In this document: one piece after another, positions 1-51,093 of the stretch
Layout: every line of letters begins with the position of its first letter
How positions within the stretch are numbered: the stretch's first letter is position 1
Assembly: GCA_051047955.1 (NCBI GenBank)
Contig: JBPGPT010000014.1
Span: forward strand, 186,001-250,000
Length of the DNA stretch: 64,000 bases
DNA from: Cystobasidiomycetes sp. EMM_F5
Lineage: Eukaryota
Direction of reading: 5' to 3'
Position numbers and translations under genes: made by a program
The notes under the pieces: generated by a model
Database searches by the model: none
Told to the model about the DNA's origin: nothing
The model's input: only the letters and a program-made list of their open reading frames with translations

Positions 1-709
1 GAGTTCCAGAACAGGAACGTCAGATGAGCATAACATCACATTATTCAGCCAGTAGTGTCTATCGAGGAGAGCGGATATTACTCTTTCCCGCCAAATTCGG
101 ATGGCATTTTCAAATGTGCGCTTCATCAGCGGGGATACGTGAATATGGAAGCTTCATACGCAGATCCGCAGCAGAGGGTCTCCGTGCCGTTGACTTATGC
201 CGCTGACAATCCGCTCACTCGAAACATCCCCAAACGCGATGTACAGACCCTGCGAGCCGAGCTAGGCAGAATTTGGCCAGCTTTGGCTAGGAAACCATTT
301 GCGAGCACACGAATGTGCTGGTACAGCGATACCTTGGACTCGCATTTCCTCATCTCGTACCATAAGCAATATGCTTCGCTGTTCTTGGCAACCGGCGACT
401 CCGGTCATGCATTCAAGGTGAGCCCAACGTGCCAGACAGACTCGACTCGACAAATGCTAATCAGCCATGTCGTCCTAGTTCTTGCCCATTATCGGTGAAT
501 ACAATGACGCTGAGTCTACGCGACGACTGACGAGCAAAGCAGGTGAACTTTGCGTTCAAGGCATTCAGCACAAGTTGCCCAGCGAGCTAGCCGAGGCATG
601 GTCGCATACGCGGGTAAGAGTGGCAGAGAAGCGAGACCGTGGGGAGACGGTATTGCGCGATTTGGATCTCGGCGAGGCAGCCACGGCTGCTGATTTAGCT
701 GCAGTATGA
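1..709 (+). CDS. FAD-dependent amine oxidase (sarcosine/L-pipecolate/fructosyl-amine oxidase family), 3' part; begins before the window
   Basis: Motifs GYYSFPPNSDGIFK, RMCWYSDT, FLATGDSGHAFK|FLPIIG; two short introns at about 418-478 and 496-543; stop TGA 707-709. Confidence 0.85.
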
Positions 710-958
710 CATTATATGCTTTGTGGTCATGTCTGTTGTTAGCTGCTTAGGCTGGACATCATGTGCTTGTCTCCTGCGCATAACTGCAGGCGCAGACCAG
801 GTCGGAAAGTTCAGTCCTGGAGATTCGGTACTAATTGTGGATGTAATGCATGCATTACATAGATGATGATCTCCGCAGCCGTGCAAGAAACCAGATGAGG
901 GTTCGGTCAAACAGGGCGAAATCACCCACAAACGTTTAGCTCAGCACCGCTGGACCAC

Positions 959-2649
959 ATGGATGCTGAGATTGTCATAGTTGGCGGAGGTCCGCACGAT
1001 TATAGCCAGTCCCGCGAAAGGTTGAGATTTCGACTGACATCGAACGCGCCGGCTTGGTGATCAGGTGTCTTTGGACTCTCGACCGCTTTGTCTTTGGCTA
1101 CGGGAAGCTATAAAGACAAGCCACACAGAATCTTGGTCATTGGTAGGGTTGTACTTGTGTTGAGCTGGTTGACACTCGCTGATCTCGATGCAGAGCAGAC
1201 CGTGATCCAAACTGTCCATCCCAAGATGCAGCTTCGAGCGACTACAACAAGATATGCAGAAACGATTATTCGGACCCCGCGTACTCTGAGCTAGCTCTCG
1301 ACGCCATGAAAGAGTGGAGCAGCAATCCTCTCTATCGACCTTACTTTCATCAGTCCGGTCGTGAGTCGATCTCCGCTATAACAATCATGGAAAGTGTACT
1401 CACGCAACGCAATTCGACTACAGTCGTTGTGACATCTAGTGCATTCGGTTCGCTGGGCGAAACCTACGTGCGAAGAAGCTTCGAATATTGCGCCAGGTTG
1501 CACGACTCAGGCCAAGCTAGTCGTCGACCAAGAATGCTGACCTCTACAGAGGAATATCGTGCTGCCTTACAGGCTACCCCATCTAAAATAGGTCCGATGC
1601 CCTCCGTGGCATACATTAACGAACTGTCTGGCTGGGCATGGTCGCGCGGTGCGATCGATGCTGTCGCTCGAAAGTGTCGAGATGCTGGGGTAACATTCGT
1701 GACCGGAGAGGTCAACAGCCTAATATTCGAAGATAACGATGTACGTGGCGCGCGTACGAGCGATGGAAAAGTATACAAATCAAGCAAGCTCGTTGTTCTC
1801 GCGGCAGGAAGCTGGTCGGCAGCAATTTCACCGGATCTTGAGGGCGACGTCGTTGCAAGTGGCCAAGTACTGGCTACTATGCAATTGGACTCTACCGAGC
1901 AGGCTGATTATGCGAAAATAGTAAGCTCGCTTCTTTACAGTACTTACAGATGCTCGAATTGATCGCCATATGTGACAGCCCGTCATTATCGATATGCACA
2001 CGGGCTTCTACGTGTTCCCGCCAAACGCTGATGGCGTCCTCAAATTTGCTTTACATCATCGGGGATACGTGAACAAGCAGCCCTCACTGTCTGATGAGAC
2101 TGTCAAAGTCTCAACGCCGCTGACCCATCATTTCGGGAAAGAACGCATGGATAACATACCGAAAGCAGCAGTCTTAAAGCTTCGTCAGGAGCTTGGTAAA
2201 TTCTGGCCAGCACTAGCTCGAAAGCCATTCGCGGGCACTCGAATGTGCTGGTACAGCGATTCACAAGATACGCACTTTCTGATATCTTATCACAAGAAGT
2301 ACAAGTCACTCTTTCTTGCGACGGGTGACTCAGGTCATGCATTCAAGGTTTGTCGTGTCCTATAACCCGAGGACAGCACGTTCTGACCGTATCGCCTTCG
2401 TCTTAGTTTCTGCCAATTATAGGTGAAAAAAATTATCCTCAATGCCACGTTCGTGGTAGCTGAAACAGCATTCTAGGGGGCCTTTGCGTACAAGCCATCG
2501 AGCATAAGTTACCAGCTGCATTGTCGGAAGCTTGGTCGCATGCACGCGAGAGGCAAGATTACAAGCCCGATCGTGGAGACTCAGTCCTACTGACCCTGGA
2601 CGTCAACGACCCCGCAACAGAAGTTGACTTGGCTGGATCTAGTGTATAG
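959..2649 (+). CDS. FAD-dependent amine oxidase, tandem paralogue of the preceding gene
   Basis: ATG 959 gives MDAEIVIVGG|GVFGLSTALSLA (Rossmann GxGxxG), VVLAAGSWS, RMCWYSDS, LATGDSGHAFK; stop TAG 2647-2649. Confidence 0.85.
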
Positions 2650-38162: not shown

Positions 38163-39948
38163 CTACCACTCCCGCACACTGCCGTCCGGAGCACGGAAGA
38201 CTGGGTTGCGCCATGAGAAATCCGCGTGCTCTTGTGCACATTTTCGAATGAGCTCCTCGTTCATCTCAATGCCCAGTCCCGGTCCAGTCAGCAGGTCAAT
38301 CATTCCCTCCTTTACGTTCAGCACTTCCGGGTTCTTGAGGTATGTAAACAGGTCATAATCTCCAGCATTGTCTGCAGACGCGAGATATCAGTCACATCTA
38401 GATATCGAATACTTGTGTAGCTTACAATGCATCTTCCAGCTCATTTCGCAGCTGTACGGAGGCGTGAATCAGCTTGATCAGCTCTCGTCTGATACGGAAT
38501 CACGCACATTACGAAATTGAGGCAAGAGAAGCCAAGCTGCAAGCTAGCAGCGAATGCAATCGGCCCAAGAGGACTATCATAAACAGTAGAAATGGTTTTC
38601 AGCTCATAGACTCCGTTGCTCGACCCTTCGTACCCACCAATGCGGCGCGAAAGCAATATCATACGTCTCTGCCATGTTTGCAATGCGCTTCGTTTCGCTG
38701 ATACCGCCCGAATGTGCGATATCTGGTTGAATGATGTCGATACACCCTGCTTCAAAGTACGGTCTGACATCTTGGCGAGTAAGCAAGCGTTCGCCCAACG
38801 CGATAGGAATGGTTGTTTGCGCATAGAGTTTTTTCAGTTCTTCAATCTGTTGTGGCAGAAGCGGTTCTTCGATGAAGAGAGGTTTGTGCGGTTCTAATGC
38901 TCGAGCCAGTTGTTTGGCAAGCGTCTTGTGCACACGGCCATGAAAGTCGAGTCCCACGTCGATCCCCACAGATTTTACCTCCTTGCATCGCTGAACCGTT
39001 GCCTCCAATGCATGCGGAGAATCCAGCCATGCAAGCTGTTCAGTGCGTCTTCAGTCCGCATATGACCAATCAGGAAGAACCCTCATCTCATCACTCACCG
39101 ACTCGACAGCGTTCATTTTGACAGCAGTGAATCCCTGTGCTTTTCTCGCCTTCGCTTGCTCGAGCACGTCGCCAGGTCGGTCTCCGCCAATCCACCCATA
39201 TACTGGACAGCTCCAACGGTGAGCTTCGGCATTTGATCCTTACAATAGGGGACTTACCTGGACACCGCGTGCGGACTTTGCCGCCAAGGAGCTGCCAGAT
39301 GGGTACGCCCAGTGTCTTGCCCTTGATGTCCCATAGCGCAATATCTGCATTGAGTCTGCACGTCAGCTTTCTCTGATGGTCGATTGGATGCATCTCACCG
39401 AGACCTGACAGAGCACTCATCAATACCGGTCCTCCACGGTAAAACCGATGGCGGTACGCAGTCTGGTAAATGTCCTCAATCTGGCATGTCGGCCAATTTA
39501 GCCAGAGTCGTTGTAAACGTCCGCAGTCACTTGCTTACATTACTTGCATCCCAGCCAATAAAGCGTTCCCTAAAGTCTACGAAAGCACCTTCCACAGCTT
39601 CCGTGTGTCCTGTCAAGGTGTGTAAAGTCAGCCTAGCAATTTATTGATCTAAGCAATATCGCTCTATCTACCTTCGAGAGTAGCTTCTCCCCAACCGACA
39701 ATGCCCTTCTCTGTTTCTACACGGACAAACAGCCATCTTGGGCGGATGCGGAAATGCTCGATACTCTTGATTGGGTCTACGCTTGGATCCTTCTTGCCAG
39801 CGAGGTGTTCCGGAGACAGGAGACCTTTCAAATAGACGTCTGTGTCGGCATAGAAGACTCCGCCAAACTGATGCTGGGGTGCAGAGACTGTCACGGGCTC
39901 GGTTGTCTGCATCTTTACCGTTTCCTCAATGCCGTTTGAGGAAGACAT
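38163..39948 (-). CDS. DgoD-like sugar-acid dehydratase (enolase superfamily, mandelate racemase subgroup)
   Basis: [68 protein letters not shown]; ends DGSVREW*. Confidence 0.9.
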
Positions 39949-40075
39949 GATGAGCGGCGATGAGGGAGTTAAGCGGAGTAGGAGATTGTACTGCAATAAG
40001 GATATGTAGGATGTACAAGATACCTTGACGAGGTGTGGTGTTGTAGGACCTGGTGAGAGTAGCAGGCGGCCTTCA

Positions 40076-40129
40076 CGCTAGCCGCTTTGTGCTGCCCGGG
40101 TCATGGTGGCAAAAGGACGTCGCTAGCCG
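40076..40129. promoter_or_regulatory. Two CGCTAGCCG sites in the dehydratase/SDR divergent promoter
   Basis: Exact copies at 40076-40084 and 40121-40129. Confidence 0.6.
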
Positions 40130-40221
40130 GCAATGGCTCGACTCGCTTGGTCGCCTGTCAAGGCTTTCGACAACACGAATGTTACTTTAGTACTTTCTCA
40201 CATCTGATATTGACAGCAAAC

Positions 40222-41204
40222 ATGACCAACAGCTACCTCGAGAGCCTGTTTGGCTTGCAAGGCAAAACGGCGTTATGTACCGGAGCAACGCGGGGCATTG
40301 GCAAAAACATGGCCGTCGCTCTCGCCAAGAGTGGAGCAGATGTTCTTCTTGTCCAAGTGAGCAGACGATGGTTCGGAATGCCGCCGGTCCAGAATTGCGC
40401 TTAAGTCGTCATATCTATAGCGAAACGACAACAATACTGAAACGCGAGACGAGATACGCGCTCTGGGACGGAGATCCGAAATTGTGGTCTGCGACCTCGC
40501 AGATGCGGCTTCGGTAAAAGGTCTCATCAAGAAAGTCACTGGCTCGAAATCCGACGGCGGACTGGGCGAAACCCTAGACATACTCATCAATTGCGGAGGC
40601 ATCCAGCGCAGGCAAGTTCATCCTCGAAACGGTGCACACCTCATGTCAATTTGACTTGTCCAACTTGTACTGTGATAGAACGCCCGCCGAGAACTTTCCA
40701 GATAGTGACTGGGATGAAGTACTGCAGGTCAATCTGCATACTGTTTTTACGCTAGCTCGGGATGCTGGCCGACATATGCTGGAGAGCCGTGGAGGCGTGT
40801 CTGGCGAGGAAGCGAAACCGGAAGGCGCAGCAGAGTCCAATCCTCGAGGCCGGGGCAAAATTGTCAATGTCGCTTCGCTGGTGTCGTATCAGGGCGGTAT
40901 CACAGTCCCCGCATACGCAGCTGCAAAACACGGTGTGCTCGGTGTCACAAAAGCCCTGTCGAATGAGTGGGCAAGCAAAGGCGTGAATGTGAACGCAATC
41001 GCGCCAGGCTACATCGCGACCGACATGAATGAAGCCTTGATAGCCAATCCAACACGCTCACGTCAAATCATGGAACGTATTCCTGCACAACGGTGGGGCA
41101 AGCCAGGCGACTTTGAAGGACTGATTGTTTTCCTTTGCGGTGCTGGGAGTGACTATATCTCAGGCGAGTGCGTCGTATGCGATGGAGGCTGGATGGGTAG
41201 GTAG
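40222..41204 (+). CDS. KduD/IdnO-like short-chain dehydrogenase (2-deoxy-D-gluconate 3-DH / gluconate 5-DH family)
   Basis: [51 protein letters not shown]. Confidence 0.9.
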
Positions 41205-41355
41205 ACCGCTCTGTAGGGGATGCATATTGCATTGTACGATGTGTCATATTGGCAACCAATCTATATACGACCTATGGACACAGGATGCTTTTGCCCGTTG
41301 AATATGCTTACCGCTGCCCTATGCAATTCGCATCCAAGTACCCTGAGTACAGATT

Positions 41356-42760
41356 CTAGACGACACTCCCGCCTGGCGGAGGGACGTTGTTGCGGAATCT
41401 CCAGTCCAATGCCGATACCAGAGCGTTAATTGTCTCTAGTGTCGGAGTCTTGATTCCTAGCTCTTTTGCCTTTCGAAGAGGTAGCGAAACAATGGTCTTT
41501 GACATCCGCTCAGCGATTGCTTATATGCTCGTTTCAAATGACTGACCTCAACCTCCATCGGCCTGGACTTGCAGGCATCCATGCACATACTGGAATAGAT
41601 GCCATTTTTGATGGTGTCGCGCTCGATCAAGCTCGTCAGGTAATCTTCCTCGATATGGTGGCCAAGAGCAGTGGCTATCGATGTCATCTCATCAATGATG
41701 GCTTTTGCAACCACGCGACCAGAGTCGGAAGCAGCCAAGTATTTGTCCGTCCGTGTCAGAGTCAAAGCGGTCAGAGTGTTCCAGCAAGCGTTCCTGCGGG
41801 TAGGTACCGTCAACTCGCACTGTCAGATTTAGCGGGTGCAAGAGCCTACCATATAGTCTTCTTCCATCGCCACAGATCAATGGACGGAACAAGTTCGACA
41901 TCAGTCCCTCCTGCTTTCAGAAGCTCAATGAACGTGTTGAGGCGTCTCTCTTCGAGTTGTCTGTCAATGCTCTTGCTGAAATGGGCTCCGAATTGCATTG
42001 TCTCATCGAATCTATGCTATCGTCGCGTAAGCAATCTTCAGCATCGTAACGATGGCCCACACCAGTCTCTCGCTCACAATTATAGTACCAGTCTCGGGCT
42101 GGTTCGCATTGACCCACGTCTGCGGCTTGACTTAGCATGCTGACTAAGAATTGGGCATAACGGAAACACTTACAACTCCAGACAAAACTGTGTTGTTTGG
42201 GAACCGCTTTTGAAATGGTTCTTCGATGCCAACACCGTTCTGGATGAGTACGATAGTGGTGTCGTCACTGATGACGGGGGCGAGCCTTTCTGTGACAGGT
42301 GGATCCATATATACTGCTTTGTGCGTGCATACGACGTAGCTGAATTTGACGCCCTTCAGACTCTTATCGTCCGGCGACGCGACCGCTGCAAGACGGTCTC
42401 ACTAAGCCTAGGATAGGTACATTTCGAGAAAACGCGGATTCTACTGACCATTGTGAAATTTGTAGCCCGAGGTATTACCGTAGCGTTCCGACTCGTAGTT
42501 CAGGCCTTGCTCTTTTGCGATTTTGTAATTGCTTCTTGCGCACACGGTGACGCGAACTCCTGGAGCTTTGCTAAGAACTGAAGAAGGTGGCGGGCATCAA
42601 ATACTGTCGACACAAGACGTGCCGCAACACGCACTGTAAGCATAGACGGCGCCTGCGTGAATGAAAGCAGGATCAGCTTCGGAAGAAAGTGCGCCTGAGA
42701 CAGACAGTGTGACTGACCGACTCCGCCGAGGCCGAACAACAGAATATCTTGGGAAGCCAT
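41356..42760 (-). CDS. Ketopantoate reductase-like (PanE/ApbA family) 2-keto-acid reductase
   Basis: MASQDILLFGLGGV|GAVYAY, ARSNY, IQNG, NACWNTLTAL, SSMCMD...RPMEVE. Confidence 0.85.
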
Positions 42761-42841
42761 GGTGAAGGGCGATGTGACTGCAGTGATGAGGCTGCCTGAG
42801 TGGTCTGTTGCCCTATGACACAAAAAGCTTTGCGTGAAGAC

Positions 42842-42871
42842 AGCGGCTAAGCCTACCAGTCGCTAGCCGCT
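42842..42871. promoter_or_regulatory. CGCTAGCCG site plus inverted variant in the reductase/dehydrogenase divergent promoter
   Basis: GTCGCTAGCCGCT at 42859-42871; AGCGGCTAA at 42842-42850. Confidence 0.6.
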
Positions 42872-42997
42872 CGTAGGTGGCAACCCGGCTTGTTGGGTAA
42901 GAGTCCGGGCTGTCAGTATTTCTTTGCAACCTAAAGCTTTGGCAGTCTTTCCAGGTTCCGGTCACCTTCATAGCGTACGCAGCTCGCGAAGCTTCCC

Positions 42998-44431
42998 ATG
43001 TCTTCCGCCAATGGCACACAATCTGGCTTGCGCAATGTCGCAGCGGTTCTCCACGGGGCCAAAGATCTGAGAATAGTGGGCTGTTCTCGCATTGATTGCG
43101 GCAAAACGCGAGGCTAAACATGCCTTTCATCGTAGACCGAGCGAACAATTCAGCCGCCTGCTGCTGGCGAATGTCAGGTTCAGGTCAAAGCAACCGGATT
43201 ATGCGGTAGCGACTTGCATTACTTCATACAGTACGTCAAGGCGAGTGGTCGGACTAATTTTGACAATAGTTGACGAGAACGGCAACAGTGGCAGAAACGG
43301 CGAATATGTCTTGCGAGATCCGATGGCTCTGGGTCACGAGTCTGCCGGCGTGGTCACAGCAGTTGGCGACGGCGTCACTAGCCTGAAGGTCGGCGACAGA
43401 GTAGCCATCGAGGCAGGCGTGTACTGTCGACAATGCCGCTTCTGCAAACTCGGTCGCTACAACCTGTGTACCAAGAGTGAGTCGTGGTGGATCCAGGTTG
43501 GATGGACATCTAGGCTAATGGGCGGTTTTGCCGTACAGTGCGGTTCGCTTCTTCGGCAAAAGTGTACCCTCATGCAGATGGCTTTCTACAAACTTACATT
43601 AACCATCCGGAGAGCTTTTTGTACGCTCTCCCTGAGCACTGCTCGTTTGAACAGGCATCTTTGGTCGAACCGCTTTCCGTCGTTCTCCACGCTGCTAGAC
43701 GGGCTCATATCACTGCTGGACAAACTGTGCTTGTACTTGGTGCCGGTGCGGTCGGACTGCTGGGTCTGTTTGTGCGATGTTCGTATCGCTGGCATTAGCT
43801 GAGCGAAATTTGACAGGTGCAAGCATCGCGACAGCATTCGGTGCGACCTTCGTTGCAGCAGTAGACATCAATGCAGACCGTGTAGCGTTTGCGACAAGAG
43901 AAGGTTTCACGCAAGCAGGCCACGTGCTTCCCATGGGTCCTCGACCTAAAGACTCCGCTGAATCCCTAGTGAAGGCGAAAGAGACGGCTGCGGACATCAT
44001 GGCAGCAGTCATGCCAGACGGGGAAGGCTTCGATGTGGTACTAGAGTGTACTGGTGTCGAGAGCTGTATGCAGACTGCTATTCACGTAAGCTGCCGCCCT
44101 CAACATCTGGGTCACAATGCTGAGACAATCATATTAATAGTGTGCCAGAACCGCCGGGAAGGTAGTCTACATAGGAATGGGTACGCCCAATGCAACGCTG
44201 CCAGTCAGTGCTGCTGCTTTCCGCGAGGTGGATATGATTGGCGTGTTCCGGTACTGCAATACCTACCCGGACGCATTGGCACTCTTCGGCGCGGGCAAGC
44301 TACCCAATGCAGACAAGCTAGTCACAACACGCTTCAAGCTCGAAAACTCGAATGCTGCATTCGACGCCTTGATGAAGGGCAAAGATGAAAACGGAAATCT
44401 GATCATCAAGCTGATGGTAGGGGATTATTAG
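42998..44431 (+). CDS. Zn-dependent polyol/sugar-acid dehydrogenase (sorbitol/xylitol/L-idonate 5-DH type MDR)
   Basis: GLCGSDLHY, GHESAG, structural-Zn CRQCRFC...C, VEPLSV, GAGAVG, VDIN (Asp suggests NAD), GVFRY. Confidence 0.9.
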
Positions 44432-44870
44432 GGTCATAAGTGTGTCAAGCTGCGGTAGTTATAGCCATCTTCGAATCCGTAATCTGCGTATCCTACGCAT
44501 CCCGACTTTCGTACCTCAGCACTATTGAGTGTTGCTTCCGTATATGTGTTATCGTTTACCGAGATTTTTGTTATTCCTGCCAGCGATGAAATGCTGACCT
44601 AGATAACAACTTTTCATATTGTGCTGATGTGCGTTTCATTATCGGTCAGAACCATGTGTCGCGAGACTCAAATCTGTATCACGATGCTTCGCTGCGCGCA
44701 ACAAATGCCGGAATTATGGTCGGTACTCTACGCGATATCTATACCATGTCGTGCATACTCTGCTAACCGGACACCGCAGCTGGCAGCAGCCCTCACAATG
44801 CGAACCCGCCAAGGACTATCGGCGTGTTGAGTAAACGATTTACCGGGCCCCGCACAGATTTTCAGGGGGG

Positions 44871-44880
44871 GCGGCTAGTG
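44871..44880. promoter_or_regulatory. Inverted motif copy upstream of the MFS gene
   Basis: GCGGCTAGTG (reverse complement CACTAGCCGC), about 135 bp before ATG 45016. Confidence 0.5.
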
Positions 44881-45015
44881 TCAAGTCGGCAACAGACGGC
44901 TTTCGAGAAGGCTAGCTGATCACGAGGCAGCAAAAGGTAAAGAAGCATCAAAGCAGCTGCAGCTCTTCGCTTGGCCATATCCTGCACCGCAACTTCTGCA
45001 CGCCTCCCCATAATC

Positions 45016-47252
45016 ATGTCATACTCACCTGATGGTAAAGATCGCAAAGAAGGGTCACTCGATGAGCTTGAAAATAATATCGCATATTCCGATGGTAACG
45101 GACATAAGTAAGCTGGCGTTTGAATCTCACGGAGGCGTTAATTGATGACCATTCCCGCCCATTAGCGTGTCAGCTCTGGACAATGCGCCTCCATCGATAC
45201 TTGCTTTGAGCGCGGAGGAGCGCGTAGCTCTCGAAAAGCGGGTCGTTCGCAAAATCGACTTCACTTTGTTGCCAATTCTCATGGTTATGTACATTCTTAA
45301 TTACCTGGGTGAGCATTACGTCGACAGCCGGCACGCAGATTCTGAGAGGGTATTGCATGACGCGTAGACCGAAACAACATTGCCGCAGCCAAACTTTACG
45401 GAATTGTCAAAGACACTGGCTTAGTCGGCACCGAGTATCAAACGGTCATCAGCATCCTCTTCGCCTCTTACATTCGTAAGCAGAGTTTTGCGATACTGGA
45501 GATTTGTTCGTTGAGCTGTACGGCACAGTCTTCCAAACGCCCTCGAATCTTGTTGCATCCAAGACCAGGTACCCTGGCATCTACATTAATGTAAGCCTTC
45601 CATATGAGTCCGCTCTGTTCATCCGCTTGCTTACACTACCTCGCAATAGGTTTGCATGGCTGGATGGGGTATCGTCAGCGCATGCGTCGCGGCGTGCAAT
45701 AGCTTCGGATCATTGATTGGCGTCCGAATCTTCATAGGCCTGTTCGAGTAAGCGCAAAAAGATGCGGCCCAGCGTGAAAGCTTAGCCCATATCCATCTCT
45801 TCGTTTATAGGGCGGCATTCTTCCCTGGCGCGGTCTTCCTGCTATCCTGCTGGTATACGAAGAAGGAACTGGCTCTGCGAACCGCTATTCTGTATTCCGG
45901 CTCTCAACTAGGAAACGCTTTTGGTGAGGACGAAAGGACACCCTTCTTCGAAGTGACCTTGTGACCGTGTCTGTGCATTTTGTTCGCAGGCACTCTGATC
46001 GCTCGTGGCATTTTGACTTTGGACGGCGTGCATGGAATCGCCGGATGGAGGTGGCTCTTCATCGTGGAGGGTGTCTTGACCTTTGGCTTCGCCATCATTT
46101 TCGCCATCCTCATACCTAATCTCCCTCAAAATTCATGGCAATTCTCTCAGATTCAGCGGGACATGGCTGTTTGGCGCCTCGAAGTTGAAGCTGGTAATGT
46201 GGATCAAGGTGTCGGAATGTGGGAGGGCTTTAAGATGGCCGTTGCGGACGTCAAGCTCTACTACCTTATGGGCATACTATCCCTAACCTACGTTGCTGGT
46301 ACGTAAAGCTTACCAACCCCCTTGTGTCACTTCTGACTTTTCTTGCTGCACAGGCGCTGTCAATTCGTGAGTCCGGCTAGGCAAATTCAGATAAACAATG
46401 CTGTTCATGCTGACGCCTCTTCGCAGCTTCTTTCCTTCGGTCGTTGCCACTCTTGGCTTCTCATCGAATAATACGCTGTTGCTCACCGCTCCCCCCTTCC
46501 TTTTCTGCACAATCGTCATGTTCATCAATGGTTGGCATGTGGGTTCAACATTACGCGACGCCGACGCCACGTCTCATCGCTAATTTGTATTCCAAACAGG
46601 CTGACAAGACCAACGAGCGTTTTCTCCACGTTTCCGTGCCTCTTGTCGTTACCATCGTTGCTATGATTATGGCTATCGCATCCACCAATACTGGAGTGCG
46701 CTACACTGCGTAAGACAATTTTCGGAGATCACAAAACACGCGCTGAACTCTCATACAGAATGATGCTCATGCCATGCTCGTTCTATTCCTCCGCTATTGT
46801 CACCCTGACCTGGATTTCCCAATCAATGCCGCGTCCCGCTCAGAAGCGTGCTGCAGCTCTTGCGATCATTAATAGCTTTGGAGTGAGTTGTTTGCTGTCA
46901 GTACGATGGCAGGCACCTGACAATGAGTTCGTCTAGAACACACCGAACATATGGTGCTCTTATCTCTACCAAGATAGCATGGCGCCCCGTTACCTTGGAG
47001 CCTTTACATGCAATATGTGAGTGATGAGCGTGCCGCAACAAACCTCGTCAATCTATGTACGCATACACTGAAGAGACGGCTGACAATATGAACTATGCTC
47101 AATGTAACAGTGCCGCATGTGGCCTTGCAATTGCTCTGGCTTTCGGACTTCGCGTTCATCTCCGCAAGCAGAATCAGCTGATGGATCAGGGCATTGTTCC
47201 GGTCGGTGTCACCAAGGAAATGATTGCTCTCGGATGGCGCTACAAGCTATGA
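45016..47252 (+). CDS. MFS transporter, anion:cation symporter (Dal5/Tna1-like) family
   Basis: KRVVRKIDFTLLP, NYL|DRNNI, AFFPG, WYTKKELALR, GIAGWRWLFIVEG, terminal WRYKL; many introns. Confidence 0.9.
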
Positions 47253-47650
47253 CGGGAAGGTAGTCTACAGATAGGTTTCTGCACGGGTTTTCAGATAAGT
47301 GATGAAGCAGCTGTGCAAATGCCGTAGGGTAGGGCAGAACGCGATGAAGCGAAGCGAATTGAGCAGCAGCAGGAGCAGTGTATCATTTAGGGGTATGTTT
47401 GTGCGTACGTCCAAGTTGTGCTCCAATATCTTTCTGCGATTGTTCGTCGCCTAGATCTGCAGCTGTGTGGTGGCAAAAGGTTTGCAGTCCCGTGATGCCA
47501 AACAATCGCACTCTACTGCTCTCATCCGTGCAACACTCTGACATGCATATGAAGCAGAAATCACATCCCGTTGATTTGGTCACATTCATTCAAGCCGTCA
47601 AGGTCACGATCTTGCCAACTCCAGACAAGCGGCTTGAAACCAATACAATC

Positions 47651-48850
47651 ATGGATGACGACGAAGATTGCGCAAAGGCAATAACATCCGGCAAATCAAA
47701 TGCGACAGCACGCACGCTGCCCTGGGAAATCATTGTGATAATTCTCGACTCCATATATGGAGAATGGGCGGCTGTTCAATCAGGGCGCTCGTCCGCCATC
47801 GTCAAAGCCAATGACGTTAACGTACGGAAACTACAGCTACGCGCCCACTATCGATGTCTACTCAGACTAAGTCTAGTCAGCTCGTCGTTTTGCAATCACT
47901 TTCGCAACAAACTGTTCACGCGATTCGATCATGCTGAGATACCGTTCCTGAAGCAAGATGCGGGGACGAGTGCTCTGTTACAGTGTTCAGGTCACTTTAG
48001 CATCGGCTCATACGTCCGTACTCTTTGCCTGCCTACCAGTACTTTGGCACATCAAGTCCCTGCGATGATTCGAACGTGCTTGCAAGTGCACAGAATCGAG
48101 CTAGACGTTTGCGACGTCCAGCGAAGCGAATGTCTCGTGGAATGTATCCAGGGTGCTCTCTCCAGTCTCCATAATCTGAAAGAGGTTCGCTTGTTACGCA
48201 TCAACTCCGTCAGAGCCTTCAGCATCGCAATGAGCCTACCTTTTCGTCTACAAAAGGCAGAGTTCGCTGGGTTTGGAGACCGAATGGGCGGCTTTTGGGA
48301 AAATCCGCACGATTGGTATGATGTCGAAGAGCTGAACCTCGTTCAGTGTAGATTTCAATCATGGGATAATCAATTCTTCACGGATCTTTTCGCTCAACAC
48401 AACGCGCGCCCGCCTTCTAATCTTCGCGTTTCAGGAGGCTCTTTCGATTTGTCAAGAGTATCCGAGTCGTGGACAAATTGTCTACGCACACTGATAGTGG
48501 AAGATGCGCAGAAAATGCTTGACTTAGGCGAACTCCGTCACTTTCGTCTGCTGCATACCCTTGCCATCAGCACAAAACACGACTTTCTCAAGTGTCAACA
48601 CAACCTGTCATATCTAACGGACGTGGTGGTCACATCTTGCAACGACCCAATGACAAGAGTACTGATAAAATGGTTGTGCCAACAACGCTTTCCAGCCCTC
48701 AGAAGGCTATCATTCGCGGCAGGTGCATTTGCACAACAGCGAGACATGCCCGGTCTGGACTTATTGAGTACGCTGGAAGAGACGCTACGACGAGACTGTC
48801 AGCTACAAGTCCTTCCGGATTACCCGCTCAAGCTGGCCGCTATCACGTAA
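47651..48850 (+). CDS. Intronless F-box-like/LRR-like hypothetical protein
   Basis: Long open frame from 47378; LPWEIIVIILD and LRLSLVSSSF resemble an F-box; repeated LxxLxL; start codon uncertain. Confidence 0.6.
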   Translation: MDDDEDCAKAITSGKSNATARTLPWEIIVIILDSIYGEWAAVQSGRSSAIVKANDVNVRKLQLRAHYRCLLRLSLVSSSFCNHFRNKLFTRFDHAEIPFLKQDAGTSALLQCSGHFSIGSYVRTLCLPTSTLAHQVPAMIRTCLQVHRIELDVCDVQRSECLVECIQGALSSLHNLKEVRLLRINSVRAFSIAMSLPFRLQKAEFAGFGDRMGGFWENPHDWYDVEELNLVQCRFQSWDNQFFTDLFAQHNARPPSNLRVSGGSFDLSRVSESWTNCLRTLIVEDAQKMLDLGELRHFRLLHTLAISTKHDFLKCQHNLSYLTDVVVTSCNDPMTRVLIKWLCQQRFPALRRLSFAAGAFAQQRDMPGLDLLSTLEETLRRDCQLQVLPDYPLKLAAIT

Positions 48851-48953: not shown

Positions 48954-50167
48954 CTACGCTTCTGCCATAGCCTCCTTCACTGCGGAAGACTTCAGCATCC
49001 AAGCCTCCTGTATCGGCATCAATCTCAGTCAAATTGAATCACTTGGTACGCATGGTTGAAAACGGACTTTGGGTTCCACATATAGCGCATCACATTCAAC
49101 GAGGCGCTTCCCTAGAATGTCGTATATTTCACCCTCAACAAAAGCTTTTCGCCCGCTCACGCTCTTGAGACGCGTTTTAACAACCAGAAACTGGTCGGCC
49201 AGCGTTGGGGCTTTGTATCGCACATTGAGGTAGACGGTCATCCCGATATTATTTGGCAAAGCGAAGAAAGCCTGTAGCATAGCATTGACATACATTCGAA
49301 TGAGCGTTTGAGGTTTACGAGATTTACGAGAATGATATCACTGACAGGACGCGCCACTGCCTCATCTAGCAGCGTAGCTAGCAGCCCACCATGCACAATG
49401 CCGTTGTGTCCGCACATTCCGTTGCCTGTGGAAACAAACAATCCTAAGTTGTCAATTGCGAAAACATTCCGTCTTTCAGCCAAGCCAGGCTCACCGACAT
49501 GGACTATAGCGATAGTCTCCTTTTCGTCTAGCGAGGCAAAGACGAGCGGGTTGACAGCAAACTTGCCGGGTCCTCTGAGTGAGAATTGGGTCAGGGAATG
49601 ACGTTTCTTGCTCTCAGGCATTCGGGAGTATGGCCGAGATTCCTTCCAGCGTTTCACTCTACTGGTCTGATCTTGCGTTAGGCTCGTAGTATAGGGAGAG
49701 GTGGTGAGGAGCTGGCCAGTAGCGGGGTTGATATATTCTTCCCTTAGTTGCTTGACAATGTCCAGGTTTTGCAATTCTCCTTCGATCTGGCGCACAAGGG
49801 CCACTCCTTCCGGCGTATCTGCAGCTGGAGCTATCGGTGCTGGCAGTGGAAAAAGCAATCTGTACCATCCTGGCGGATACAGCACACAGAGGCCATAGCC
49901 GGCAATCAACCCAAACGCGCCAACAGCCACAGCTGTCCCGAAAGAGCGCTTGCCGGGTTGCGAGGTAGCAGAGGATGAGGTACTTTGCAGCGGGCTCGCC
50001 TTTGCAGAGTCTGCAAGATATGCTGCATTTCCAGGACGTGTTGTTGATTGCCACCGTTGTCGCCGGATGTACCGGCTAGGAATCGCAGAATGGCCTACGA
50101 AGGGCAATGTTGCCTGACGGGCAGCGAACAAACATGTGCAGGCAGGCCGTAGCCGCGACAGAGACAT
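48954..50167 (-). CDS. Mitochondrial hotdog-fold thioesterase (PaaI/THEM4-like)
   Basis: Presequence and TM segment, CGHNGIVHGGLLATLLDE, TVYLNVRYKAPT, GRK. Confidence 0.88.
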
Positions 50168-51093
50168 GGTTCACGTGAATATCATTTATTATCAGGATGA
50201 GGGTTGGTTTCAAAGGCAAACGTGGGCGGTTGTTGCTTTTTCGGTAACGCCGCGCCTCAAATTGGACAAGCCAACTGCATCCCCTTGACATGCACAAACA
50301 GCAGAATTAAGCAAGGTATACTGAAGAAAATACGAGACAGCGTAACATAATCATAGCGTAACACAATCACATTTGTAATGGCCGATACTGTATATACATA
50401 TATATAACGAGCGGTGGGAAACGGAATGACATAGAAAGTAAGCCAGAATCTGCAGGAGGCTTGCACTACCGCATGGCCTTTATTATCTCTCTCTGTGTCC
50501 CTGGGATGGCCGCCGCCGTCCTCGCAGAAACAAAGCCTGAGAAGGTGAACCACCTGTTGAGCGAATACTGCATCGGCACAGGTCGCTTCACCATGCTGTA
50601 AAAGCCATCACATCATCAAGAGGCTCCACACGTTCATCCCTTTCTGCATTGCATTTGTAGGAACGTAGAAGAGGCCTTGACTTCCCGCTGCCAGTGGTGT
50701 GTTCGAACTGCGCAAATCGCAGGAATGGAAGCAAAGGGCGAAGCAGATGAGATACCCGCACAAACTCAAGCTGAGATGTTTAAGAGAAGAGGAATTGGAT
50801 GTTGGGTTGTCCCAGAAAAGATCTCATTTTGTAACGAGATGGTCAGCTGCAGCCCGCCCCACAGGACTGGTGCTCGGGGTAGGTAAAGAGTCGGAGCCAC
50901 CTCAGCCGGATATCCTGATAAGCAGAGTACAATGACCATCTACTATGTGCACGGTCCTCTCGAAAGGGCCCGAGGAGAAATTCTTCCCTCCAAATTTTTC
51001 CGGCAAAGGAAGTTTGGGGGGACGAAAGAGAGCCCTTCTGCCTATCCTCGGAGCCACGTCCAGTCCATACCGCAAACGACACGCTCAAGCACA

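Follow-up and report, generated by a model that had tools for sequence, protein, structure and literature searches.

For the cystobasidiomycete yeast Cystobasidiomycetes sp. EMM_F5, the question is whether five neighbouring genes at 38163-47252 of the window (the whole stretch of 64,000 nucleotides analysed here, positions 186,001 to 250,000 of contig JBPGPT010000014.1 in assembly GCA_051047955.1) serve one pathway, and which sugar acid this pathway would consume. The five genes, called A to E below, probably work together in sugar-acid uptake and breakdown, and comparison of their sequences with known families suggests that the dehydratase step is most likely of the galactonate type, rather than part of the route through L-idonate that the initial annotation had proposed. 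The reading put forward here, with a rough probability of 0.45, is a co-regulated funnel of aldonates and keto-aldonates into a D-galactonate-type (DgoD/Dgd) dehydratase, with cleavage encoded elsewhere and with gene A and the KduD-like short-chain dehydrogenase/reductase (SDR) gene B as its core. Evidence for a real functional unit comes from a sequence motif whose exact copies in the window are confined to the two bidirectional promoters, from the linkage of A- and B-type genes in some other fungi, and from that of A- and C-type genes in two ascomycete genera. The features, with their predicted functions, are as follows.

38163..39948, minus strand, gene A, DgoD-type (D-galactonate-type) enolase-superfamily dehydratase, 439 amino acids, 9 exons (39948-39672, 39609-39539, 39480-39399, 39344-39258, 39202-39099, 39035-38638, 38573-38508, 38451-38426, 38371-38163), homology-guided model
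39949..40221, no strand, A-B bidirectional promoter, 273 bp between start codons, two exact CGCTAGCCG sites (40076-40084 and 40121-40129)
40222..41204, plus strand, gene B, KduD-like SDR, 283 amino acids, 3 exons (40222-40356, 40421-40611, 40679-41204), homology-guided model
41356..42760, minus strand, gene C, PanE/ApbA-type 2-oxoacid reductase, 336 amino acids, 8 exons (42760-42718, 42652-42635, 42577-42449, 42397-42174, 42119-42078, 42016-41850, 41793-41547, 41496-41356), homology-guided model
42761..42997, no strand, C-D bidirectional promoter, 237 bp between start codons, one exact CGCTAGCCG site (42861-42869)
42998..44431, plus strand, gene D, Zn-dependent medium-chain dehydrogenase/reductase (MDR) of the polyol-dehydrogenase (sorbitol/xylitol dehydrogenase) type, 381 amino acids, 6 exons (42998-43075, 43136-43230, 43289-43476, 43539-43763, 43817-44085, 44141-44431), homology-guided model
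44872..44880, minus strand, one-mismatch motif copy CACTAGCCG, about 140 bp upstream of gene E
45016..47252, plus strand, gene E, major facilitator superfamily (MFS) transporter with anion:cation-symporter (ACS) features, 504 amino acids, 13 exons, ab initio model

Genes A-D were spliced using orthologs found with single-exon queries, while the model of gene E is ab initio only, with codon usage and splice sites learned from A-D, and its last intron (46989-47073) is unsure. All five genes are intron-rich, all frames are open after splicing, and the expected catalytic or cofactor motifs were found in the gene models. The 22 introns defined in genes A-D are 50-67 nt long and 21 of them are GT-AG; the sole GC-AG intron is intron 2 of gene B (40612-40678), with the donor GCAAGT. 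Genes A and B lie head to head, as do C and D, gene E follows D after 585 bp, and the spacers among the five genes measure 150-585 bp amid housekeeping genes. On these points the initial annotation holds: Pfam and NCBIfam matches on exon pieces agree with five sugar-acid or polyol-family genes at these positions, the two head-to-head pairs are separated by 273 bp (A/B) and 237 bp (C/D), and the flanks are unrelated to the cluster. Its further statement that the cluster carries no aldolase, kinase or regulator is also borne out, as none of the three (Zn2Cys6 type for the regulator) was found among the open reading frame (ORF) pieces of at least 100 amino acids in the window, and no Zn2Cys6 cysteine pattern occurs in any frame.

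By its domains, scores and motifs, gene A belongs to the enolase superfamily and is of the DgoD type. Its exon pieces match Pfam MR_MLE_N (PF02746) and MR_MLE_C (PF13378), and the top NCBIfam family of three exon pieces is galactonate dehydratase NF010624 (162.9, 62.7 and 40.4 bits, the cut-off of 311 being one for the whole protein). The Leucosporidium ortholog P0003, with 76% overall identity, reaches 513.6 bits on this galactonate-dehydratase equivalog against the cut-off of 311, and obtains 247 of 750 bits on the archaeal gluconate/galactonate dehydratase model and 216 of 550 on ManD. Spliced gene A shows 74-78% overall identity to P0001-P0005, and its top PDB match is 3rr1, a putative D-galactonate dehydratase (5e-36). 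The motifs DFHGR, FIEEP, GER, QPD and APHCPLGP are present in gene A and invariant across 28 fungal relatives; by comparison with E. coli DgoD they would supply the residues that bind the metal as well as the His and His-Asp acid/base residues. Homologs of gene A also exist in Aspergillus, for example A. wentii P0091 with 53% identity. A ManD-type mannonate dehydratase was considered and rejected on the DgoD-type His/Asp motifs and the low ManD score of the ortholog.

Gene B is KduD-like by family assignment. Its exon pieces match Pfam adh_short and adh_short_C2, and KduD (TIGR01832) is its top NCBIfam family, the last exon alone giving 204.5 bits. The ortholog P0122 of Cystobasidium minutum (83% identity) also has KduD as its top family, with 295.3 bits, and scores 208.7 of 279, 189.5 of 369 and 188.7 of 408 bits on three gluconate 5-dehydrogenase models. 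In PDB, the KduD structures 4hp8 (2.8e-46) and 4z9y (3.2e-44) come first and gluconate 5-dehydrogenases next (5e-35 to 4e-27). The classical SDR cofactor and catalytic motifs, including YAAAK, are present, and the C-terminus carries the DGGW motif as in KduD. An aldose 1-dehydrogenase was rejected, since the glucose-1-dehydrogenase model gave 166 of 215 bits, well below the KduD score; a sorbose or mannitol-type SDR is presumably not the right class either.

Gene C is assigned to the PanE/ApbA-type reductases and to a narrow subfamily of them. Pfam ApbA and ApbA_C are matched by its exon pieces, which give 41.0 and 38.7 bits on TIGR00745 (cut-off 141 bits) as exon pieces only, while the PanE half of the relative P0079 gives 212.5 bits on the same model. 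Overall identity of the gene C model to the PanE-like halves of P0079 and P0116 is 38-40%, and the motifs GLGGVG, WKK and SSMCMD are present. The C-terminal exon found 34 proteins at E <=0.001 among 1.84 billion representatives, indicating that the subfamily is narrow, and a PDB search with a gene C exon returned no match.

Gene D is, by the same kind of comparison, a member of the polyol-dehydrogenase branch of Zn-dependent MDRs. Its exon pieces match Pfam ADH_N and ADH_zinc_N, and the deposited protein P0241 (EMMF5_003517, 312 amino acids) is identical (100%) to it over 312 amino acids. The closest structures are 1e3j (1.5e-59) and human SDH (1.8e-58); ketose reductase and sorbitol, xylitol and L-arabinitol dehydrogenases (1e3j, 1pl6, 7y9p, 3m6i) range from 1e-59 to 7e-50, and E. 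coli IdnD (PDB 6dkh) stands at 9e-25. On the IdnD model NF007375 (cut-off 469 bits), P0241, which equals gene D, scores 139 and the ortholog P0244 scores 195. The motifs CGSDLH, GHE and CRQCRFCKLGRYNLC supply the catalytic Zn ligands and the structural Zn cysteines, and the nearest Atlas clusters are named 'D-xylulose reductase' with a score of 0.98, which serves as a lead only.

The deposited EMMF5_003517 begins at an internal Met; exons 1 and 2 and a portion of exon 3 are missing from it (about 69 residues; window 42998-43300), and the omitted N-terminal residues are supported by orthologs and by the window sequence. Gene D did return its own protein, and exon searches with genes A and B gave no 100% match from the source organism, the best being 90% for A and 94% for B (P0121, an ENA metagenome protein). 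The deposited annotation may lack genes A and B or model them wrongly.

Gene E shows the features of an MFS transporter with similarity to the ACS family. Pfam MFS_1 is matched weakly on two exons, and three consecutive exons are collinear on TIGR00893 (profile 65-94, 97-133 and 145-221) with 12.6, 17.4 and 24.6 bits (E 0.046, 0.0016 and 1.1e-5), far under the cut-off of 395. TIGR00893, a model named after the D-galactonate transporter, is the sole transporter family matched by the exons of gene E. A PDB search with a gene E exon gave no match, and an Atlas search with a gene E exon gave MFS_1 clusters only.

One 11-mer, GTCGCTAGCCG, is common to the A-B and C-D promoters, and the three exact copies of CGCTAGCCG in 64 kb all lie inside these two promoters, 100-175 bp from the four start codons. 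As a random control, 5000 segment pairs of the same sizes were taken from the window, and a common word of at least 11 letters was found in 2.7% of them (p ~0.027); in 15 of 5000 random pairs, some 9-mer occurred more than once in one segment and also in its partner, a statistic chosen after the motif had been seen. The one-mismatch copy CACTAGCCG upstream of gene E is weak on its own. A separate 10-mer, GGCAACAGAC, is present in the C-D promoter (42800-42830) and upstream of gene E (44880-44900), its only two sites in the window, and a shared 10-mer of this kind is estimated not to be rare for regions of such size.

For the linkage of genes A and B in other fungi, 26 species present in both homolog lists were counted by hand and judged from locus tags and contig sizes. 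The two genes share a contig in 10/26 species. Adjacent locus tags were observed in two of these, Microbotryomycetes sp. JL221 (OIO90_000561/000560) and JL201 (OIV83_002553/002554), and contigs of equal size in the other eight, four of them on contigs of at most 301 kb. These contigs are 33.5 kb in Pseudohyphozyma, 88 kb in Myxozyma, 275 kb in Dipodascopsis tothii, 301 kb in Leucosporidium and 861 kb in D. uninucleata; those of Meredithblackwellia (2.6 Mb), Flagelloscypha (3.0 Mb) and Sugiyamaella (5.0 Mb) are less informative. By lineage, the ten species comprise all five Microbotryomycetes, all four Saccharomycotina (two Dipodascopsis, Myxozyma and Sugiyamaella) and Flagelloscypha.

A link between A- and C-type genes was found in ascomycetes. 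In Aureobasidium subglaciale and Fusarium avenaceum, four deposited proteins of about 690 amino acids are merged gene models that combine a DgoD-type with a PanE-type part, and the two parts stand in opposite order in the two genera, indicating that A- and C-type genes are adjacent on one strand there. The PanE halves of these merged models (P0079 and P0116) rank third and fourth among the full-length relatives of gene C.

The metagenome search, in which 80 loci were kept, gave almost entirely uninterrupted bacterial-looking DgoD genes with 45-63% identity and no fungal synteny. Those most similar to the fungal genes (58-62% identity, uninterrupted) lie on the bacterial-looking contigs L003-L006 (L005:75-1816) and L059 (9995-11992). 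They are followed, at a distance of some 10 nt or of a few hundred nt, by a glucose-1-dehydrogenase-type SDR, and L011 and L059 also have an MDR nearby. The three loci annotated have DgoD next to SDRs of this type and MDRs, only a loose analogy; the SDRs beside DgoD in the metagenome loci share just 27-31% identity with gene B.

The mechanism proposed for the funnel into a galactonate-type dehydratase takes all its steps from family chemistry. Gene E, as an ACS-type MFS transporter, would import an aldonate or keto-aldonate, and the three nicotinamide-dependent oxidoreductases encoded by genes B, C and D would converge related acids on one 2R,3S-aldonate. In this step, the PanE-type gene C would reduce a 2-oxo group to a D-2-hydroxy acid, and genes B and D would act on the carbinol or ketone of the penultimate carbon, which adjoins the terminal CH2OH. 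Gene A would then dehydrate the 2R,3S-aldonate, most likely D-galactonate and possibly also D-gluconate, to the 2-keto-3-deoxy acid, which an enzyme encoded elsewhere would cleave to pyruvate and glyceraldehyde. On this reading, the core formed by A and B is ancient in fungi, as is its linkage with C, whereas D, and perhaps E, joined locally.

Several observations weigh against this funnel. A- and B-type genes lie on separate contigs in 16/26 species, namely in all five Tremellomycetes and in all 11 Mycena-type agarics (Mycena, Roridomyces and Cylindrobasidium). Orthologs of D are not beside A in any of the three informative genomes, A and D being 46 locus tags apart in NB124-2 and on separate contigs in Pseudohyphozyma and Phenoliferia; gene D also has the look of a standard polyol dehydrogenase, for which acids need not be substrates. 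The KduD score of P0122 (295.3 bits) is below the equivalog cut-off of 338.85 bits, the galactonate equivalog model passed by the ortholog of gene A was built on bacteria, and related archaeal enzymes accept both gluconate and galactonate. The promoter motif is a post hoc finding, and copies of it with one mismatch show no enrichment in the window (17 observed and 13.7 expected). Two papers tie a fungal 'predicted galactonate dehydratase' or an MR/MLE enzyme, possible counterparts of gene A, to xylose and not to galactonate (PMC13534542, PMC6547517). The initial annotation had combined the five genes into one pathway; the shared promoter motif and the A-B and A-C linkages speak for a single co-regulated unit, and the separation of D from A in 3/3 informative relatives speaks against it. 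The picture of conserved linkage in relatives is mixed: A and B share a contig in 10/26 species, A- and C-type genes are merged in models of two ascomycete genera, and A and D are linked in 0/3 informative genomes.

An end to the pathway resembling bacterial Route III, although unlikely, would keep the A-B pair as its conserved core, which counts in its favour. In this scheme, gene A would dehydrate an aldonate, either D-galactonate or a pentonate (D-xylonate or L-arabinonate, for example), gene B would oxidise the penultimate carbinol of the product, and an unlinked hydrolase or other enzyme would cleave the diketo acid, with no aldolase involved. KduD, the nearest characterised family of gene B, acts at C5 of 2-keto-3-deoxy-gluconate (KDG), and this counts for the scheme; the same KduD-type C5 oxidation of a hexonate product would, however, give a 2,5-diketo acid and not the cleavable 2,4-diketo acid. 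Bacterial SDR 4-dehydrogenases and FAH-family hydrolases process 2-keto-3-deoxy-pentonates and -deoxyhexonates, as described in the available part of PMC6336799, but no FAH-family hydrolase was seen among the ORF pieces of at least 100 amino acids in the window. In the portions consulted of PMC6231085, PMC9781776 and PMC8113861, the aldolase of the fungal D-galactonate pathway is not yet assigned, which would leave room for an aldolase-free end. Two analogies may point to pentoses: in Trichoderma atroviride, a predicted galactonate dehydratase shows a fitness defect specific to xylose (-3.0 in liquid xylose) and induction on xylan (PMC13534542), and the Rhodotorula toruloides MR/MLE enzyme is up 64- to 1000-fold on xylose (PMC6547517). 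An anion-type importer is a poor fit to a neutral pentose as the start, and the scheme gives no role to genes C and D.

A wider proposal, which we hold to be doubtful, is that the A-B pair and the PanE-type reductase form the missing lower half of a fungal non-phosphorylative aldonate pathway. This half would be aldolase-independent, with the 2-keto-3-deoxy acid oxidised or reduced before cleavage, and CGCTAGCCG would be the site of its regulator. The same genes may also serve an oxidative D-xylose/L-arabinose branch, which is hinted at because of the xylose phenotypes of the Trichoderma 'galactonate dehydratase'.

The route of the initial annotation, from 2-keto-L-gulonate through L-idonate, 5-ketogluconate and gluconate to KDG, is improbable and is not supported by the family tests. 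In this route, gene E would import 2-keto-L-gulonate or L-idonate, gene C would form L-idonate, gene D would form 5-keto-D-gluconate, gene B would form D-gluconate and gene A would form KDG, so that the fungal D-glucuronate pathway would end non-phosphorylatively. The scheme makes chemical sense and employs all four enzymes, in line with the shared promoter motif, and the A and B families co-occur in basidiomycete yeasts and Lipomycetaceae. At the end on which sorbitol-dehydrogenase-type enzymes act, L-idonate and L-gulonate would also be similar to L-iditol and sorbitol. Every step except that of gene C has a family precedent, including the MDR GluE (an L-idonate 5-dehydrogenase) and the SDR GluF (a 5-ketogluconate reductase) of A. 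niger in the sections available of PMC5306355 and PMC5814732. For gene C, the ApbA domains do not fit the role of reducing 2-keto-L-gulonate as it is known, GluC and GluD being, in the parts of the sources at hand, D-isomer 2-hydroxyacid dehydrogenases and not PanE-type.

The remaining enzymes fit the idonate route no better. Gene A had been taken for a gluconate dehydratase, but its ortholog P0003 passes the galactonate equivalog and not the gluconate/galactonate model (247 of 750). Gene B had been taken for an IdnO-type 5-keto-D-gluconate reductase, but it is nearer to KduD, which scores higher, and falls below three gluconate 5-dehydrogenase cut-offs. Gene D is far from the IdnD-type L-idonate 5-dehydrogenase that had been proposed (139-195 of 469 bits; IdnD 9e-25 vs 1e-59 for polyol enzymes), and it is unlinked to A in the 3/3 informative relatives. 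In addition, A. niger phosphorylates the gluconate from this pathway and does not dehydrate it, according to the available part of PMC5814732.

That the cluster is a local accident, with a conserved A-B pair beside an unrelated pair of polyol dehydrogenase and ketopantoate-reductase-like genes and a transporter, has little chance of being right. In its favour, D is unlinked to A elsewhere (3/3 informative genomes) and resembles xylitol/sorbitol dehydrogenase, and PanE-type and ACS-type proteins also serve fungal pantothenate biosynthesis and vitamin uptake; against it, the exact motif of both bidirectional promoters occurs nowhere else in 64 kb, C-type reductases of the same narrow subfamily recur by DgoD-type genes in two ascomycete genera, and the genes are tightly packed (150-585 bp spacers) amid housekeeping genes.

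The funnel into a galactonate-type dehydratase may be compared with several known systems. The E. coli dgo operon has a DgoD-type dehydratase by an ACS-family MFS transporter (DgoT), comparable to A and the putatively ACS-type E here, together with the DgoK kinase, the DgoA aldolase and the DgoR regulator; the EMM_F5 cluster is without kinase, aldolase and regulator and has three oxidoreductases instead. Bacterial KduD provides the top family and the top structures for gene B, with a common DGGW C-terminus, whereas gene B is fungal, intron-bearing and paired with a DgoD-type gene, with no KduI/uronate-isomerase context. In work by Wichelecki et al. from 2014, low-efficiency enolase-superfamily gluconate/mannonate dehydratases are reported to act in bacterial L-idonate/L-gulonate catabolism, where an MDR, a reductase and a dehydratase lead to KDG. 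The logic of this system is like that of the idonate route, and its dehydratases belong to the ManD subgroup, on which the ortholog of gene A scores 216 of 550.

Among fungi, DgdA/B are reportedly of the DgoD type (Motter et al., from 2014). A fungal dehydratase converts D-galactonate to 2-keto-3-deoxy-D-galactonate in the accessible sections of PMC6231085, PMC9781776 and PMC8113861. This is the same reaction as that proposed for gene A, to which the fungal Dgd enzymes may correspond; neither in those sections nor in the literature searches made was a description found of Dgd enzymes clustered with any KduD-like SDR, PanE-like reductase, MDR or MFS transporter. The two characterised fungal 2-keto-L-gulonate reductases, GluC and GluD of A. 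niger, are D-isomer 2-hydroxyacid dehydrogenases in the parts seen of PMC4870679 and PMC5306355. As far as the excerpts of PMC5306355 and PMC5814732 go, gluD and gluE share a bidirectional promoter, so that both gluD-gluE and C-D here have a reductase and an MDR under one bidirectional promoter; GluF is an SDR with less than 35% similarity to IdnO, and the resulting gluconate is phosphorylated (PMC5814732). A. niger glu and E. coli idn (IdnD/IdnO), as far as these excerpts describe them, also have an MDR and an SDR able to epimerise C5 of a hexonate via a 5-keto acid, as the genes here might do, but the family of the GluC/GluD reductases differs from the PanE-type C, and IdnD and IdnO are not the top matches of D and B. 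In bacterial Route III, an acid-sugar dehydratase is clustered with a product-oxidising SDR, comparable to A and B, whereas its SDRs are not KduD-type and its hydrolase is absent from the EMM_F5 cluster (PMC6336799, in the part available).

In literature searches, with most subscription journals lying outside them, no description was found of a DgoD-type dehydratase clustered in a fungus with a KduD-like SDR and a PanE-type reductase, which agrees with the initial annotation in not recognising the clustered form as described. Searches directed at yeast use of D-galactonate, at glucuronate in R. toruloides, at dgdA and at inositol in Cryptococcus also gave no description of the cluster; an R. 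toruloides galacturonate preprint holds no glucuronate fitness data, and a pentose paper mentions no dehydratase.

Outside the five genes, the cluster is flanked by a P-type cation ATPase on one side and by an ORF without Pfam match on the other. Two long ORFs that come directly after gene E on its downstream side, at 47363-48847 (plus strand, 495 amino acids) and 49241-50170 (minus strand, 310 amino acids), have no Pfam match. ORF pieces with FAD-dependent oxidoreductase (DAO) domains lie at 34-2362 (plus strand) and match overlapping parts of the Pfam profile; they may represent two tandem DAO-type genes or one gene truncated at the window edge. The remaining window holds housekeeping genes, including the aconitase family, MCM2, TIM, KARI, MTR4 and others.

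The component families are ordinary and leave known chemistry intact; the novelty lies in how they are combined, in the conservation of this combination and in the candidate cis-element. Sugar-acid catabolism of basidiomycete yeasts is almost unmapped at the gene level, and in Aspergillus the step after D-galactonate dehydration is unassigned in the sources as far as available. The dehydratase/KduD-like pair, linked in Pucciniomycotina and in early-diverging Saccharomycotina and joined by a PanE-type partner, would offer concrete candidates for missing steps. The genes of the cluster are also candidates for the assimilation of keto-aldonates and aldonates, traits that are used in yeast taxonomy. 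The value of the locus lies in a short, testable list of genes and one candidate cis-element.

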